64,000 bases of DNA from an uncultured bacterium (GTDB lineage: Bacteria; Zixibacteria; MSB-5A5; CAIYYT01): positions 512,001 through 576,000 of the forward strand of contig CAVSCK010000004.1 in NCBI GenBank assembly GCA_963726455.1, read 5' to 3'. How positions within the stretch are numbered: the stretch's first letter is position 1; each line of letters begins with the position of its first letter. The position numbers and the translations under genes were made by a program. Under the pieces are notes generated by a model. The model made no database searches, was not told where the DNA came from, and saw nothing but the letters and a program-made list of their open reading frames with translations. Positions 1,773-44,136 of this stretch are shown here, one piece after another.

Positions 1773-2213
1773 ATGTTGTCCAATTTTCATCGGAGCCAGA
1801 AGGGCTTCACACTGATCGAGCTGATGATCGTCGTGGTCATCATCGGTATCTTGGCTGCTTTGGCTATTCCGCGGTTCATGAGAGCCACAACGAAGTCGAA
1901 ACAGTCAGAAGCCAAGCAGATCTTAAAGCAGATCTACACAATGCAACAGACCTACAAGCAGGCCAATGACACTTACTGGATTTCCGGTGGTGCCACTGCC
2001 AGTGCTGCAGCGCCAAACGGGTTTGCTGTGCTGGGCGTCGAGGTCGGCCCGACCGCTCGTTACACCTACAGCTTCCCGGTAGAGACCGCGACCACTTTCA
2101 CCGGACAGGCGACAGTAGCCGCACCTGGTCTTGACGATGACGCAGCGCCAGACACCTGGACAATCAACCAGGATGGTCAGCTGGTGTGCACGTCTGATGA
2201 CTCGGTGCTTTAG
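1773..2213 (+). CDS. Type IV pilin (PilA-like) 2, paralog of pilin 1
   Basis: QKG/FTLIELMIVVVIIGILAALAIPRF; shares KQSEAK-ILKQIY and LDDDA-xD-WTIN blocks with pilin 1; RBS GAGGAGG. Confidence 0.93.
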   Translation: MLSNFHRSQKGFTLIELMIVVVIIGILAALAIPRFMRATTKSKQSEAKQILKQIYTMQQTYKQANDTYWISGGATASAAAPNGFAVLGVEVGPTARYTYSFPVETATTFTGQATVAAPGLDDDAAPDTWTINQDGQLVCTSDDSVL

Positions 2214-18880: not shown

Positions 18881-19166
18881 GTGCCCCACCGCTTGCGGTG
18901 GGTTTAATTCCCGTGTCATTCCCGCTTCACTGCGGAGTGCCATTCCTGCTTCGCTGCAGGTGCCATTCCCGCTTGGCTGCGGAGTGTCATTCCCGCGAAG
19001 GCGGAAATCCAGTCCATGGTGTGTCATTCCCGCGAAAGCGGGAATCCAAGACAAAAGACGGTAGGTCGCTCGGGAAGGGATTCCCGGCGACAGACTAATC
19101 ACCACCTGTCATTCCCACGAAAGTGGGAATCCAGGATTACAATGGTGCCCCACTGCTTGCGGTGGG
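18881..19166. repeat. Repeat cluster in the 23S-5S spacer
   Basis: Two CCCAC...GTGGG palindromes (18881, 19145) enclose six GT(G/C)-CATTCC units, three of them full ATTCCC-N8-GG(G/A)AAT hairpins. Confidence 0.85.
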
Positions 19167-38145: not shown

Positions 38146-38703
38146 CTACGATTCTATTCTTCCGGCAAGCCGGAGCAGTGCCACAAGCTTAGTGAGGACT
38201 TCGTTAATCTCGTCAGCGGCGAGGGATCCGTGGTGATGAATCTCCCTGGCGATCAGTATCCCCTTGTGGTGCACTCTCAGGTAGACGAACGGCTCCAGAC
38301 TGGTGATCAATTGCTGGACGTCCTGGTCTTTCAGAATTGTTGCGTGATCCTGAAATAGCAAATCGGTGGTGAACCGGCGGTCAAATTCGGTAGAGCCAGA
38401 CACCGCTCTTTTGCCCAGGCCGAGATGCCACAGCAGGCGGTCGGAGATACCGGCGGGCCAGATTTCGAAATAGGAAGGCATGCTACCGAGAACATGGATG
38501 TGCAGTTTGTGCTCGGTGAGAAGTTCAATCTCGATCGGGACGCCCTGAAAGGTGCTGCGCAAAATGGGGCAGGGATGCATCATCGTATCTCTGTCGCCCG
38601 ACGAATCCTCCGCAGGCCAGACTATTTCGCCGTCGAAACGTTGCTGGAATTCCTCAAGCAGTTTTTCCAGCGGCTGCATCCAGTGCGGCTTTGTGGAAAT
38701 CAT
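38146..38703 (-). CDS. Hypothetical protein, paralog of 40267-40818
   Basis: Shares LHIH...MP-xFEI-P-GI-DRL...SG-xEFDR-F...L-PF; RBS AAGGAGG. Confidence 0.75.
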   Translation of the reverse strand: MISTKPHWMQPLEKLLEEFQQRFDGEIVWPAEDSSGDRDTMMHPCPILRSTFQGVPIEIELLTEHKLHIHVLGSMPSYFEIWPAGISDRLLWHLGLGKRAVSGSTEFDRRFTTDLLFQDHATILKDQDVQQLITSLEPFVYLRVHHKGILIAREIHHHGSLAADEINEVLTKLVALLRLAGRIES

Positions 38704-38781
38704 AACTACCCTCCTTCAAGCAGATGCTTCCAGCATGAATACGAGGGCCAGGATGTCGAAGTTGCGGGGAAATGGGATGTG

Positions 38782-38938
38782 CCGTCAGGTCACACGCCGC
38801 GAGGTCATGTGCTACACGATGACGGAGGTAACACCGCGGCGCAGGACCTGACGGAACCCTGCTTCCGTCGGTCTTGTTGTGTCAGGTCCTGCGGCGGGTG
38901 GTGTATGGAAATGGTGGGGAAGCCGTGTGACCTGACAC
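38782..38938. repeat. Two GTCAGGTC...GACCTGAC hairpins in opposite orientation
   Basis: 38782-38854 (ACA/CAG loop) and 38879-38938 (CTG/TGT loop). Confidence 0.7.
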
Positions 38939-39553: not shown

Positions 39554-39583
39554 GCCTGGATTCCCGCCTTCGCGGGAATGACA
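39554..39583. repeat. Solo ATTCCC-N8-GGGAAT palindrome
   Basis: GCCTGGATTCCCGCCTTCGCGGGAATGACA. Confidence 0.85.
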
Positions 39584-39720: not shown

Positions 39721-40074
39721 TGTCATTCCCACGAAAGTGGGAATCCAGGCTTATTTGTAGGATGGTGACAAATCTTTCCAAGTCGGATTGAAGTTCTCGA
39801 TGAGTTTCAGTTTCCACTGGCGATTCCATTTCTTCAGTTGCTTCTCCCGCACAATTGCCTGATAGGCATCTTCGCAAGTCTCATAGTAAACGAGCAAGTG
39901 TGCCTGATACTTCTTGGTGAAGCCGTCGATGAGATCGTTCTTGTGTTCATAGACGCGGCGATTCAGGTCGCTGGTGACGCCGATATAGAGTGTGCCGTTA
40001 CGTCTGCTGGCCATGATGTAGACGAAATATTGTTTCATTAGTCAGCCTGGATTCCCACTTTCGTGGGAATGACA
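39721..40074 (-). mobile_element. GIY-YIG mini-cassette copy 1 with 31-bp terminal inverted repeats
   Basis: TGTCATTCCCACGAAAGTGGGAATCCAGGCT at 39721-39751 and its exact reverse complement at 40044-40074. Mobility is inferred from the second copy. Confidence 0.75.
39751..40038 (-). CDS. Small stand-alone GIY-YIG nuclease
   Basis: YFVYIM...GTLYIGVT...RRVYEH...REKQLKKW...FNP motifs. Confidence 0.93.
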
Positions 40075-40090
40075 ACTTTAAGTCGCCGAC

Positions 40091-40119
40091 ATTATCGATA
40101 AGGAACGATAGGATGGCAA
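40091..40119 (-). promoter_or_regulatory. Candidate sigma70 promoter reading into GIY-YIG copy 1
   Basis: Minus strand TTGCCA-17 bp-GATAAT, just outside the right inverted repeat. Confidence 0.5.
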
Positions 40120-40266
40120 TACCCTTTTGCCTTATCGCATCACGAAGTATGCCGGGATTCTCGCTGCCGATTTTGACGGAGAGATTCCAGTTGAGTGAGC
40201 GTTGAGAAACAGATTTCAGTCGCACTACGGCCAACCTCTCGGAGGTCGACGTACTGAGCCCTAAGA

Positions 40267-40818
40267 TCAACCGGCGTGGCGGGCGGCGATGGCGAGAAGG
40301 GAAATCAGCTTGGTGATGACTTCACCGATGGCATCGGCGGTGATGTATTCCTCGTGTTCGCAGTCACGTTCCAGCATGACGCCGCCCCGATTCACCTTGA
40401 TGCACGCGAACGGTGCGAGTGATCGGATCAGATGATAGACCTCGGGGAGTTGGAGAAATCGCGATTTGTCGACAGCGTCGGTGTTGGTGGCGAAATGACG
40501 GTCGAACTCACGATTTCCCGATTTGACTGCGCCGCCCATGCCGAACAAACCAAACAACCGATCCGCAATTCCTTTGGGATGTATCTCGAACTCGGCCGGC
40601 ATCGGGCAAGAGTAAGCGTGAATGTGCAGCCGGTTGCCGGACATCGGCTCGACGCGAACCTTGGTGCCCTGAATTGTCGATTCGTAGGCAGGATATACCG
40701 TTTCCCAGGATTCGACGCCGATTGATTCCGTGTTATCATTCGGCAAGGTGATCTTGCCTCCGTGCCGCGCTTGAAGTTGCTGCAGGAGATTGTCGAAGGT
40801 GAGGTGGTAGGTGGTCAT
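40267..40818 (-). CDS. Hypothetical protein, paralog of 38146-38703
   Basis: Shared motifs with the paralog; ATGA overlap with the upstream gene. Confidence 0.75.
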   Translation of the reverse strand: MTTYHLTFDNLLQQLQARHGGKITLPNDNTESIGVESWETVYPAYESTIQGTKVRVEPMSGNRLHIHAYSCPMPAEFEIHPKGIADRLFGLFGMGGAVKSGNREFDRHFATNTDAVDKSRFLQLPEVYHLIRSLAPFACIKVNRGGVMLERDCEHEEYITADAIGEVITKLISLLAIAARHAG

Positions 40819-41495
40819 GGTGCGCTCACTTGCTGCGAGGCGCGTTCAGGCGGAAACTCGTCGGGGAAAGTTGCGCGGACACGTTGTGAACTATGCAAGT
40901 AGAGCAGGAGCAATAGTACTGGTGTCACAAACCACGCCAGTCCAAAGAAGAAGCTAAATATGGTAAACCCGAGAGAAGATTGTGAATGTGCGCCTGCGTT
41001 GAGGATTCGGACGAACAGAATATCCTCAACGATGGCATAGACGACGGCAAGGTGTAGAAATCTTCTGGCCTTGTGCACGGCGAGCGGCTGCATTCTCCAG
41101 AGACGGTAACCGGCGCGGAAACTTTGTACTCCCCAAAGAAGGAAGACCACTGCCTGAATCGCATGAAGCAAAGTTTCTACCATACGCTCCTGCAAATGCG
41201 GATTGCTCGACGTGTGTGGCAAAACTGCGGACAGGGTCGACACAAGCGCAAACACAAAGCTGAAGAAGGGACCCAGGATGCATAAGAAGAAGCAAACGAA
41301 CGAAAGGGAGCCGCCCATTTGGGTAGGAGCAAAATAGGAGGTATCCGTTGGTACCTCTGACGTAACTTGACTCTCGTCTTCTGGGACCGAGATCGTGGCG
41401 TAACAGTACGGGCACTCAGCATCGCGGCCGGCGAAGCTCTGTTTGAAAGTCAGTTGCTCGCCGCAGGAAGGGCAGGGGAAGTGGAGATCGGTCAT
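40815..41495 (-). CDS. Zinc-ribbon plus multi-TM membrane protein
   Basis: CPSC...CPYC, four TM helices, YL-xS-RVRATF tail. Confidence 0.75.
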   Translation of the reverse strand: MTDLHFPCPSCGEQLTFKQSFAGRDAECPYCYATISVPEDESQVTSEVPTDTSYFAPTQMGGSLSFVCFFLCILGPFFSFVFALVSTLSAVLPHTSSNPHLQERMVETLLHAIQAVVFLLWGVQSFRAGYRLWRMQPLAVHKARRFLHLAVVYAIVEDILFVRILNAGAHSQSSLGFTIFSFFFGLAWFVTPVLLLLLYLHSSQRVRATFPDEFPPERASQQVSAP

Positions 41496-41860
41496 GGATC
41501 TTCTCTCGAATCACTGTACTTTGCGCCGCAGTACGGGCAGAATGTGAACTGTCTGAATGGAGAACGTTGGATTACTGAGCGGTTACAGGTATCACAGAAA
41601 TGTGTCATCCTGAATTGCAGAAAAGCAATTAAGATTAATGAGGGAACAAACAACACAAAGGCGACCGCAGGCGCATGAAACAGAGCCAAGAACAAAACAA
41701 GAACAGCCGCCCCAACCACGTACGACAACGCTAGCAGGCGCTTCTTGAATTGGGTATTCCTGGCGAAGCGATACGCAAATGTACCCGCGATGATGGCTGC
41801 CGCAACAAGAAGCAGCAGAATCGTAAGTAGCTGGTCAGACGGAAACGAAGTGTTCGCCAT
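41492..41860 (-). CDS. Membrane protein with C-terminal zinc ribbon
   Basis: Three TM helices followed by CDTC...CPYC; ATGA coupling to the next gene. Confidence 0.7.
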   Translation of the reverse strand: MANTSFPSDQLLTILLLLVAAAIIAGTFAYRFARNTQFKKRLLALSYVVGAAVLVLFLALFHAPAVAFVLFVPSLILIAFLQFRMTHFCDTCNRSVIQRSPFRQFTFCPYCGAKYSDSREDP

Positions 41861-42053
41861 CAAGGTTCTCCGATGCTGAGATTCGTTTCCACTAAGATAA
41901 CCGCCGATAGTTGATAATACAAGCGATTTGCCGGTCACCGCCTGAGGCCTACGGCGCGTGAGTGGCGGCGCTAGGCAGAAAGGGCTGCCAGACGATTGTC
42001 AAGACCGAAGCGGTTTTTGCCTACAGAACTTCTGGACGTGGCTGCGCGGCGAA

Positions 42054-42406
42054 GTCATTCCCACGAAAGTGGGAATCCAGGCTTATTTGTAGGATGGTGA
42101 CAAATCTTTCCAAGTCGGATTGAAGTCCTCGATGAGTTCCAGTTTCCACTGGCGATTCCATTTCTTCAGTTGTTTCTCCCGCACAATTGCCTGATAGGCA
42201 TCTTCGCAAGTCTCATAGTAAACGAGCAAGTGTGCCTGATACCTCTTCGTGAAGCCGTCGATGAGATCGTTCTTGTGTTCATAGACGCGGCGATTCAGGT
42301 CGCTGGTGACGCCGATATAGAGTGTGCCGTTACGTCTGCTGGCCATGATGTATACGAAGTATTGTTTCATTAGTCAGCCTGGATTCCCACTTTCGTGGGA
42401 ATGACA
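42054..42406 (-). mobile_element. GIY-YIG mini-cassette copy 2
   Basis: Same terminal repeats (42054-42083, 42376-42406) with identical spacing to the ORF. Confidence 0.75.
42083..42370 (-). CDS. Small stand-alone GIY-YIG nuclease, near-identical to 39751-40038
   Basis: Seven nucleotide and three amino-acid differences from copy 1 by manual comparison. Confidence 0.93.
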   Translation of the reverse strand: MKQYFVYIMASRRNGTLYIGVTSDLNRRVYEHKNDLIDGFTKRYQAHLLVYYETCEDAYQAIVREKQLKKWNRQWKLELIEDFNPTWKDLSPSYK

Positions 42407-42611
42407 ACCCCGCCGAACACTGGATTCCCGCCTGCGCGGGAATGACACGAAGCGCGAGCACTGGATTCCCACTTTCGTGGGAATGACAACCCCGCCGAAC
42501 ACTGGATTCCCGCCTGCGCGGGAATGACACGAAGCGCGAGCACTGGATTCCCACTTTCGTGGGAATGACAACCCCGCCGAAAACTGGGTTCCCACTTTCA
42601 TGGGAATGACG
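42380..42611. repeat. Tandem array of six 27-bp palindromes with alternating 14-bp linkers
   Basis: Units at 42380, 42421, 42462, 42503, 42544 and 42585; 41-bp period with an 82-bp higher-order repeat. Confidence 0.92.
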
Positions 42612-43844: not shown

Positions 43845-44136
43845 GCGTCAGGTCACACCAATCGCGGGGCGATTGGCAGGACCTGACGCAACGAAGAATG
43901 AAGCAGTCAGGTCAATTGCGCAAGACACACCCCTTGATCCCCTCTCAAGAGGGGAAAGAACGATTGTACACCAATCGCGGGGTGATTGGCAGGACCTGAC
44001 GCAACAGGGACAATACATGATGGTTGCGGGCGTGGTGAGAAGAAGACGGCGCAAGACACACCCCTTGATCCCCTCTCAAGAGGGGAAAGAACGATTGTAG
44101 ACCAATCGCGGGGCGATTGGCAGGACCTGACGCAAC
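43845..44136. repeat. Composite palindrome cluster with a ~131-bp duplication
   Basis: CCAATCGCGGGG-GATTGGCAGGACCTGACGCAAC three times and CACACCCCTTGATCCCCTCTCAAGAGGGGAA twice. Confidence 0.85.

Follow-up and report, generated by a model that had tools for sequence, protein, structure and literature searches.

The closest described relatives of the locus studied here belong to the Ssn family of site-specific single-stranded-DNA nucleases (Chenal et al. 2025, Nat Commun 16:2388, PMC11893778), and our literature search found no further paper on that family. We compare with them two short, nearly identical cassettes in a 64,000-nt stretch of DNA from an uncultured bacterium (hereafter the window; positions 512001-576000 of contig C4 in a 3.64-Mb genome of five contigs, coded G000). 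Each cassette holds one gene for a small GIY-YIG nuclease, ssn1 or ssn2, between inverted copies of a hairpin.

According to the sections of Chenal et al. on which we draw, SsnA of Neisseria meningitidis is a 94-aa single-domain GIY-YIG protein, and the family corresponds to CDD entry cd10448 (GIY-YIG_unchar_3). Its target is the Neisseria Transformation Sequence (NTS), a 28-nt element, CGTCATTCCCGCGMAVGCGGGAATCYRG, that includes the repeat dRS3. SsnA binds the NTS hairpin solely as single-stranded DNA and in one orientation; cleavage falls a few nucleotides to the 5' side of the hairpin, and neither duplex DNA nor RNA is a substrate. The substitutions Y6A, Y17A and E64A, which affect the two GIY-YIG tyrosines and a predicted cofactor-binding glutamate, each abolish cutting, and the positions most important for cleavage and binding are GTC 5' of the palindrome and C 3' of it. 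Single-strand hairpin activity is known for four homologues. Searched with a degenerate motif, 71% of ssnA homologues had at least one nearby repeat and 42% had repeats on both sides, and it is stated in general terms that the repeat type co-varies with the protein clade. SsnA affects natural transformation. The Discussion of that paper likens NTS-ssnA-NTS to an insertion sequence, to IS200/IS605 and to repetitive extragenic palindromes (REPs), raises the analogy with RAYT/REP systems and the idea of a selfish element, and proposes domestication.

The repeat has also been described in its own right. CGTC-tagged REPs include Neisseria dRS3 (= CGTC-1) and the Rickettsia repeats RPE-4 and RPE-6, and in the parts of that study used here they were concluded to lack a dedicated transposase (Di Nocera et al., BMC Genomics 2013;14:522, PMC3733652). 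Like the hairpins of the window, they are palindromic stem-loops with a GTC-containing tag at one end. In contrast to the present case, they were covered there as repeats without a GIY-YIG partner, and head-to-head dimers were their main arrangement, whereas the arrays described here are mostly direct. The Ssn gene fills the enzyme gap left for CGTC REPs.

The twin ssn cassettes and their hairpins

The two cassettes, their genes and their four flanking hairpins are as follows.

39722..40076, minus strand: cassette 1 (hairpin, ssn gene, inverted hairpin), the block in common with cassette 2; copy-versus-copy alignment and blastn against the genome
42054..42408, minus strand: cassette 2, the second copy of that block; repeat search, copy-versus-copy alignment and blastn against the genome
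39751..40038, minus strand: ssn1, a 95-aa single-domain GIY-YIG protein of the Ssn family; open reading frame (ORF), PF01541 at E 3.7e-16 over residues 3-77
42083..42370, minus strand: ssn2, a 95-aa paralogue 97% identical to ssn1 (K43R, K78E, N82D); ORF, PF01541 at E 3.0e-16
39722..39751, plus strand: NTS-type hairpin at the 3' end of ssn1, GTCATTCCCACGAAAGTGGGAATCCAGGCT, overlapping the stop codon by 1 nt; repeat search and DNA fold
40044..40073, minus strand: NTS-type hairpin ending 5 nt before the ssn1 ATG, with the same reading on the minus strand; repeat search and DNA fold
42054..42083, plus strand: NTS-type hairpin at the 3' end of ssn2; repeat search
42376..42405, minus strand: NTS-type hairpin before the ssn2 ATG, which doubles as the first unit of an array to its right; repeat search

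An earlier, sequence-only reading of this DNA had described two cassettes with a lone 95-aa GIY-YIG ORF between inverted repeats, one repeat overlapping the stop codon and the other ending 5 nt before the ATG, and the ORF calls, the PF01541 matches and the repeat search found them just so. Both cassettes are bounded by inverted copies of the 30-nt hairpin GTCATTCCCACGAAAGTGGGAATCCAGGCT. In cassette 1 the inverted arms extend to 31 nt (39721-39751 and 40044-40074; 100% complementary, 292 nt between them), and in cassette 2 the perfect inverted arm is 30 nt. Aligned together with their flanks, the copies have in common a block of 355 nt that is about 98% identical inside and loses all similarity at its edges, directly left of GTCATT and 3 nt past the right arm. 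The near-identity claimed earlier thus stands, as does the claim that similarity ends a few bases outside the repeats; the lengths given for the blocks, 354 and 353 nt, were slightly short. The block holds seven differences, all inside the ORF, of which three change an amino acid and four are silent, again as first read, and the arms and spacers have no differing position. Neither cassette has a direct repeat of flanking bases that would mark a target duplication, and none of the eight neighbouring ORFs tested matches a transposase or recombinase family in Pfam, which agrees with what had been seen by eye.

Blastn of the cassette against G000 finds just these two full-length matches, and a sensitive blastn finds no internal fragment elsewhere in the genome. 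The two intact ssn copies lie 2.3 kb apart. An assembly artefact, in which one cassette was placed twice, is scarcely credible in view of the seven differing positions, the unrelated flanks, the 1.98 kb of unique genes between the copies and their place on a 1.9-Mb contig of a five-contig genome. The ratio of non-synonymous to synonymous change (dN/dS) between ssn1 and ssn2 is about 0.18, a value that comes from just three non-synonymous and four synonymous changes. Both genes are under purifying selection.

PF01541 (GIY-YIG) is the sole domain above cut-off, spanning residues 3-77 of 95, with no separate DNA-binding domain. Tblastn with the window protein gives a single match in each of two 2.17-Mb Neisseria gonorrhoeae records (E 6e-28 and 1e-27, residues 3-90). 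The gonococcal SsnA-type ORF is 94 aa long and has Y6, Y17 and E64 in the numbering of Chenal et al.; it is 60% identical to the window protein over 88 of the 95 residues, ungapped (pairwise E 8e-39), and Y7, Y18 and E65 of the window protein align with these three residues. All three residues that the published mutants identify as essential for cleavage are therefore conserved. Chenal et al. define Ssn homologues by E<1e-10 and 75% coverage against N. meningitidis CAX49033.1; with the N. gonorrhoeae orthologue standing in for that protein, the window protein falls within both limits. Its 95 residues also fit a single-domain GIY-YIG family of about 94 aa (<150 aa), and NTS-type hairpins lie within 500 bp on both sides of each gene. 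The two gonococcal records (NZ_CP119140.1 and NZ_CP119142.1) are filed as plasmids, are evidently chromosomes and are almost unannotated; the locus is NZ_CP119140.1:1880778-1884041.

Other GIY-YIG families are more distant. A PDB sequence search returned 1ywl as its sole match, and the weakness of that match (E 0.0033) suggests that the window protein is distinct from UPF0213. With homing endonucleases of the I-TevI type it has the GIY-YIG fold in common, and possibly a gene that spreads via repair of its own break. Those enzymes, however, have a separate DNA-binding domain, cut the duplex intron-less allele and are located in introns, whereas the window gene is free-standing and encodes no extra domain; an NCBIfam search gave nothing above cut-off, the best model being TIGR01453 (22.6 bits against a cut-off of 56.05, residues 5-37). 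Elsewhere in G000 the GIY-YIG genes are one distant small gene and a probable uvrC, seen as a weak PF01541 match within an open frame of 623 aa.

Each repeat had been read as a hairpin in itself, and DNA folding bears this out: the arm at 39722 folds at -11.0 kcal/mol (z -5.6) and that at 40044 at -8.1 kcal/mol (z -3.2), with none of 200 shuffles folding as well. The palindrome ATTCCC-N8-GGGAAT occurs 11 times in the window and not once in 100 shuffles, and a chance origin of these repeats is excluded. All four flanking hairpins read GTC-ATTCCC...GGGAAT-C, with the GTC 5' of the palindrome and the C 3' of it. They differ from the published NTS consensus at three positions, two of which form a compensatory pair (A:T in the stem). 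Four copies of the 25-mer GTCATTCCCACGAAAGTGGGAATCC, identical to the window arms, lie no more than 1.5 kb from the gonococcal gene. The same 25-nt hairpin is thus used in bacteria as distant as Neisseria and the window lineage.

Counted over the whole genome, as the sequence-only reading had advised, there are two cassettes and about 47 oriented NTS copies. The strict dRS3 pattern has 44 matches in G000. The oriented pattern GTCATTCC-N8-GGAATCCAG with up to three mismatches has 50, three of which (three mismatches, no stem) look like chance, leaving 47. The published NTS consensus is found 23 times at up to one mismatch and 44 times at up to three, and never in any of 10 Markov-1 controls. 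The base before GTC in the 47 oriented copies is mostly T (TGTC 39, CGTC 5, AGTC 2, GGTC 1). Four of the 47 flank the two ssn genes, and the rest are solo or in direct arrays; what solo copies have in common with the cassette ends is the hairpin and a short GCTKATT tail only. As a palindrome with an oriented GTC tag that is both dispersed and clustered, the repeat also has the features of the CGTC-tagged REPs and dRS3.

Judged by its sequence, the window locus adds another example to the published Ssn/NTS pairing; the kind of system is not new. We consider it highly probable that both copies are Ssn-family cassettes of the form NTS-ssn-NTS, in an explanation that includes predicted nicking and copying by host recombination. 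The likeness to the family as described in the sections used here comprises a single-domain GIY-YIG protein of about 94 aa, the conserved catalytic residues, a gene between inverted NTS, and hairpins both dispersed and in arrays. The differences from the systems described there are an uncultured host, two intact copies, T (39/47) rather than C before GTC, and about 45 NTS copies. By itself the locus changes little: it extends the published system to another uncultured bacterial lineage.

The sequence-only reading had proposed a RAYT/REP-like selfish unit in which a GIY-YIG nuclease, in place of an HUH enzyme, spreads itself and its repeat. The first half of this holds, as the nuclease is the dedicated partner of a dRS3-type hairpin, a pairing already published (PMC11893778). 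The second half, spread by the nuclease, is still a hypothesis and is taken up below. The unit is not a member of RAYT/REP, which would have an HUH/Tyr enzyme and a GTAG tag. The likeness is considerable: a lone small nuclease gene lies between inverted hairpin repeats that are also dispersed, recognition is of single strands, and there are BIME-like arrays. However, as far as the sources used here describe them, RAYT/REP systems (REPtrons, REPINs) have an HUH/Tyr transposase, a GTAG tag (PMC3733652) and one gene copy, whereas the window has GIY-YIG as sole domain with no transposase family among the eight neighbourhood ORFs, a (T/C)GTC tag and two copies; inverted doublets of the REPIN kind are not seen in the window system. 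The resemblance is one of analogy and not of membership.

Further NTS copies in the window are the following.

42420..42610, minus strand: array of five further NTS hairpins at 41-nt spacing in one orientation, between cassette 2 and the stop codon of an M29 peptidase gene; repeat search
39556..39582, minus strand: solo NTS hairpin with the GCG stem, lying 139 nt to the left of cassette 1; repeat search
18986..19134, plus strand: three more NTS copies (18986, 19023, 19108) beside degenerate half-units, near a putative 5S rRNA gene; pattern search, 5S by eye

In the array (C4:554420-554610) the stem variants CCCGCG..CGCGGG and CCCACG..CGTGGG alternate. At 18900-19134, degenerate half-hairpins (..CATTCCCGCTTC.., about every 30 nt) run into the three NTS copies just upstream of the putative 5S rRNA gene.

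Gene and repeat across genomes

The protein family is large, with at least 7994 of 8000 scored candidates at E<=1e-5. For the closest homologues we took the 80 closest loci in species-representative genomes, which are 61-72% identical to the window protein and come from Ignavibacteria, Nitrospirae, Patescibacteria, Proteobacteria, Cyanobacteria, Planctomycetota and others. An NTS (up to three mismatches in 25 nt) lies within 100 nt of the gene on both sides at 26 of these loci, upstream only at 15 and downstream only at 14, usually in the same orientation as in the window.

One of the 80 loci falls in a genome of the same family as the window. Next to this set stand 41 genomes related to G000, which are mutually related and hence not independent, so that we give counts and no statistic. 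A homologue (E<=1e-20) is present in 17 of the 21 relatives with five or more exact hairpins, against 7 of the 20 with two or fewer. Among these seven hairpin-poor relatives with a homologue, six have other repeats of GTCAT/GTCAC type beside the gene, and one (G036, locus L007) has an upstream NTS. When the relatives' loci are sorted by protein identity, NTS occur in 10 of 12 at 61-81% identity and in 1 of 15 below 60%. The flanks of these distant homologues were read directly, exact-match and perfect-stem searches being too strict, and they carry different hairpins with the same GTCAT start: a GTCATGCTGAGCG...GCATC type at five loci, a GTCATTGCGAG...GCAATC type at three and GTCATTCCGAA...GGAATC at one. 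Because homologues below 60% identity carry different GTCAT-type hairpins, the repeat co-varies with the protein clade. Both parts of the cross-genome relation that had been anticipated from the window were thus found, co-occurrence in the 55 of 80 closest homologues that are flanked and co-variation in the change of hairpin type with nuclease clade.

These comparisons bear on a simpler view of the hairpins, namely that they are ordinary terminators or RNA-stabilising stem-loops unrelated to the nuclease. Their positions at gene ends and between co-oriented genes would suit such a function, as would the array that follows the peptidase stop. Even so, we regard it as very improbable: Ssn homologues bind and cut the sequence in DNA and not in RNA, according to the results of PMC11893778 drawn on here, the NTS flanks 55 of 80 homologues in many phyla, the repeat type changes with the protein clade, and no T-run follows the stems.

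Two homologous loci have an unusual structure. Two contigs of Thiobacillus metagenome-assembled genomes (MAGs; L105 and L122) match at 86% identity over the left flank and the whole ssn homologue, and homology stops no more than 6 nt past the stop codon; NTS were not detected at either locus. The ssn homologue may thus have a rearrangement breakpoint at its 3' end. At L139 (G017:C87:1-2600) a tandem array of 4.1 units of 332 nt, 99% identical, occupies positions 615-1986; each unit contains a GIY-YIG-like frame only distantly related to the query (29% identity), and the array ends at a tRNA-Asn gene (1947-2020).

The cassette as a unit and its possible spread

In three further genomes, pairs of divergent copies match from edge to edge. 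The pair L017/L137 of relative G028 is 75% identical over 374 nt, the pair L046/L052 of isolate SpSt-1139 81% over 363 nt, and the pair L085/L088 of a Planctomycetota MAG 86% over 378 nt. In all three the homology runs from the GTCAT of one arm to the ATGAC of the other, with arms 93-100% alike. For two of these pairs dN/dS was computed as 0.06 each, at synonymous divergences of 0.78 and about 2. Neither the G000 pair nor any of the three others has a target duplication. In the congener G002, an 81% identical gene lies between the same hairpins at an unrelated site, beside a permease gene and a 48-aa zinc-ribbon ORF. On this sequence evidence, what has been duplicated within genomes, and what occupies different sites in related ones, is the cassette from hairpin to hairpin and no more. 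What is new here is the set of edge-exact cassette pairs in four genomes and the hairpin type that tracks the nuclease clade.

The zinc-ribbon ORF of G002 (L004, G002:C98:3608-6084, positions 1782-1928, minus strand) resembles the 226-aa membrane protein of the window at its N-terminus and runs into the cassette hairpin, ending in the hairpin-encoded ..VIPAKAGIQAY. The cassette may have truncated or extended a gene here.

The comparative data speak to the unit that is duplicated or transferred, and not to the agent that moves it. By homology with the Neisseria and Wolbachia enzymes, the window protein would bind the GTCATTCCC-N8-GGGAATCC hairpin as single-stranded DNA only and in one orientation, and Mg2+-dependent hydrolysis of the strand is predicted a few nucleotides 5' of the hairpin. 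As the arms are inverted, each strand would carry a cuttable hairpin at the 5' boundary of the cassette, which places the predicted nicks immediately outside it. Replication, repair or DNA uptake could be the occasion for a nick at a hairpin, and host recombination could then repair the nick using another hairpin copy as homology. The cassette would thereby be copied into a solo hairpin site, a homing-like conversion that would involve no transposase chemistry. We hypothesize that spread is most likely indirect, through host repair of hairpin nicks. This would fit the locus because the cassette edges lie at hairpins, target duplications are lacking, cassette 2 abuts the array and a solo hairpin lies 139 nt from cassette 1.

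Taken to its full extent, the hypothesis would make the cassette an autonomous selfish element whose sole gene, a hydrolytic single-strand nuclease, drives "hairpin homing" into its own hairpins and also seeds gene-less hairpins, with the twin and the edge-exact pairs as its footprints. We put this forward tentatively and think it rather doubtful in so strong a form. Its main rival is a domesticated role such as that proposed for the control of Neisseria transformation, in which a host nuclease restricts or modulates hairpin-bearing single-stranded DNA, whether incoming or exposed, the hairpins are maintained by the host, the twins arose by ordinary recombination between repeats or by two horizontal transfers, and the enzyme has no part in spread. 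This is a serious contender, if short of an even chance. It draws on the effect of SsnA on natural transformation and on the domestication hypothesis in the Discussion of PMC11893778, and it is in keeping with purifying selection on both ssn copies, with hairpins that persist in relatives without the gene and with arrays that are mostly direct and not inverted doublets. It accounts less well for homologues of 60-72% identity scattered over unrelated phyla, for a 25-nt hairpin identical in Neisseria and G000, for a gene at different loci in congeners and for cassette-exact homology in four genomes. Because of these four observations, a horizontally moving module fits better than a vertically inherited host gene.

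The layout also invites comparison with a transposon. In that case Ssn would itself be a transposase that excises the cassette at both hairpins and reinserts it, a GIY-YIG counterpart of IS200/IS605 peel-and-paste. The arrangement is that of a minimal insertion sequence, with a gene between inverted ends, sharp edges and copies at unrelated sites, and as in IS200/IS605 the hairpin ends are recognised as single-stranded DNA and no target is duplicated. GIY-YIG enzymes, however, hydrolyse DNA with no covalent intermediate and do not rejoin it. In IS200/IS605 both ends are on one strand and the HUH enzyme is covalently joined, whereas the cuttable hairpins of the window are on opposite strands, so that a single strand could not be excised at both ends. 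Since the enzyme cannot rejoin DNA and one strand is not cuttable at both ends, peel-and-paste of this kind is unlikely. The parts of PMC11893778 used here report cutting only, there is no target duplication or conserved target, and gene-less inverted doublets of cassette type are absent from G000 apart from one pair (C4:1514815-1515077, 236 nt between the hairpins), in whose interval tblastn finds no ssn remnant. For these reasons we judge an autonomous transposon improbable.

A vehicle was sought among mobile replicons. Tblastn matched 13 phage records, all below 40% identity, and gave 33 plasmid matches, 32 of them on replicons typed as non-mobilizable and several on replicons of megabase size, with no obvious carrier.

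Several observations weigh against the explanation preferred here, an NTS-ssn-NTS cassette of the Ssn family that is copied by way of nicked hairpins. In the closest-homologue set, 25 of 80 have no NTS within 100 nt. The repeat persists without the gene: four of the 21 NTS-rich relatives (G007, G012, G015, G018) have no close homologue, and three of these genomes are 100% complete. The common block overshoots the right arm by 3 nt and the left arm by 0, so its edges are asymmetric about the predicted cut sites. The degenerate Ssn-related motif (SRM) of Chenal et al. misses all four flanking hairpins, because their stem carries the compensatory A:T pair, and matches only the GCG-stem copies; genome-wide it is barely enriched, with 38 matches against a mean of 22.3 in controls. 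Pathogenic Neisseria are reported to have hundreds of NTS copies, far above the 44-47 of G000. The members of a divergent pair could have been acquired separately and not copied within a genome. Finally, the empty sites that the sequence-only reading had hoped for in related genomes did not appear in clean form among the congener intervals compared. In G003 and G001 the stretch bounded by the conserved membrane-protein gene and the M29 peptidase gene has neither cassette nor hairpin, but other genes are there, and we rejected it as an empty site since it is a variable region holding different genes. In the reverse comparison, neither cassette nor hairpin follows the G000 orthologue of the permease that adjoins the G002 cassette, but the genes downstream of this orthologue differ too.

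The edge-exact pairs sharpen the question of whether a GIY-YIG single-strand nuclease drives the spread of its own gene and of the CGTC REP class. With a 355-nt element and solo sites at hand, the question of mobility is directly testable.

Neighbouring genes and other repeats

On the minus strand the order is M29 peptidase, hairpin array, ssn2, two membrane-protein genes, a 183-aa gene and ssn1. Because both ssn genes are co-oriented with their upstream neighbours and only 5 nt separate hairpin and ATG, the gene arrangement suggests that ssn1 and ssn2 are probably expressed by read-through. Cassette 1 is flanked by paralogous ORFs at 38146-38703 (185 aa) and 40267-40818 (183 aa), both on the minus strand and with no Pfam match; the congeners G003 and G001 have a single copy of this gene at the syntenic place, at 38-44% identity.

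The third small GIY-YIG gene of G000 is of the UPF0213/YhbQ type (PDB 1zg2, E 2.2e-18; 33% identical to gonococcal SsnA). Members of this type (PDB 1ywl, 1zg2) are, like the window protein, small stand-alone GIY-YIG proteins of about 100 aa, and as noted the match of the window protein to 1ywl is weak. The gene (about 1495-1851 of locus L003, G000:C5:592550-595780) is bracketed by a 74-nt repeat that forms a long hairpin (-41.8 kcal/mol, RNA parameters; C5:593873-593944, 594324-594397 and 594540-594613). The repeat has four matches, at this locus only, and the ORF reads into its downstream copy. A second GIY-YIG clade may thus also be paired with a hairpin of its own.

A further palindromic repeat, GTCAGGTC...GACCTGAC with an inner stem, lies at 43845-44000 and 38779-38896 of the window. 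It has about seven matches in G000, and near-identical copies are found on many congener contigs.

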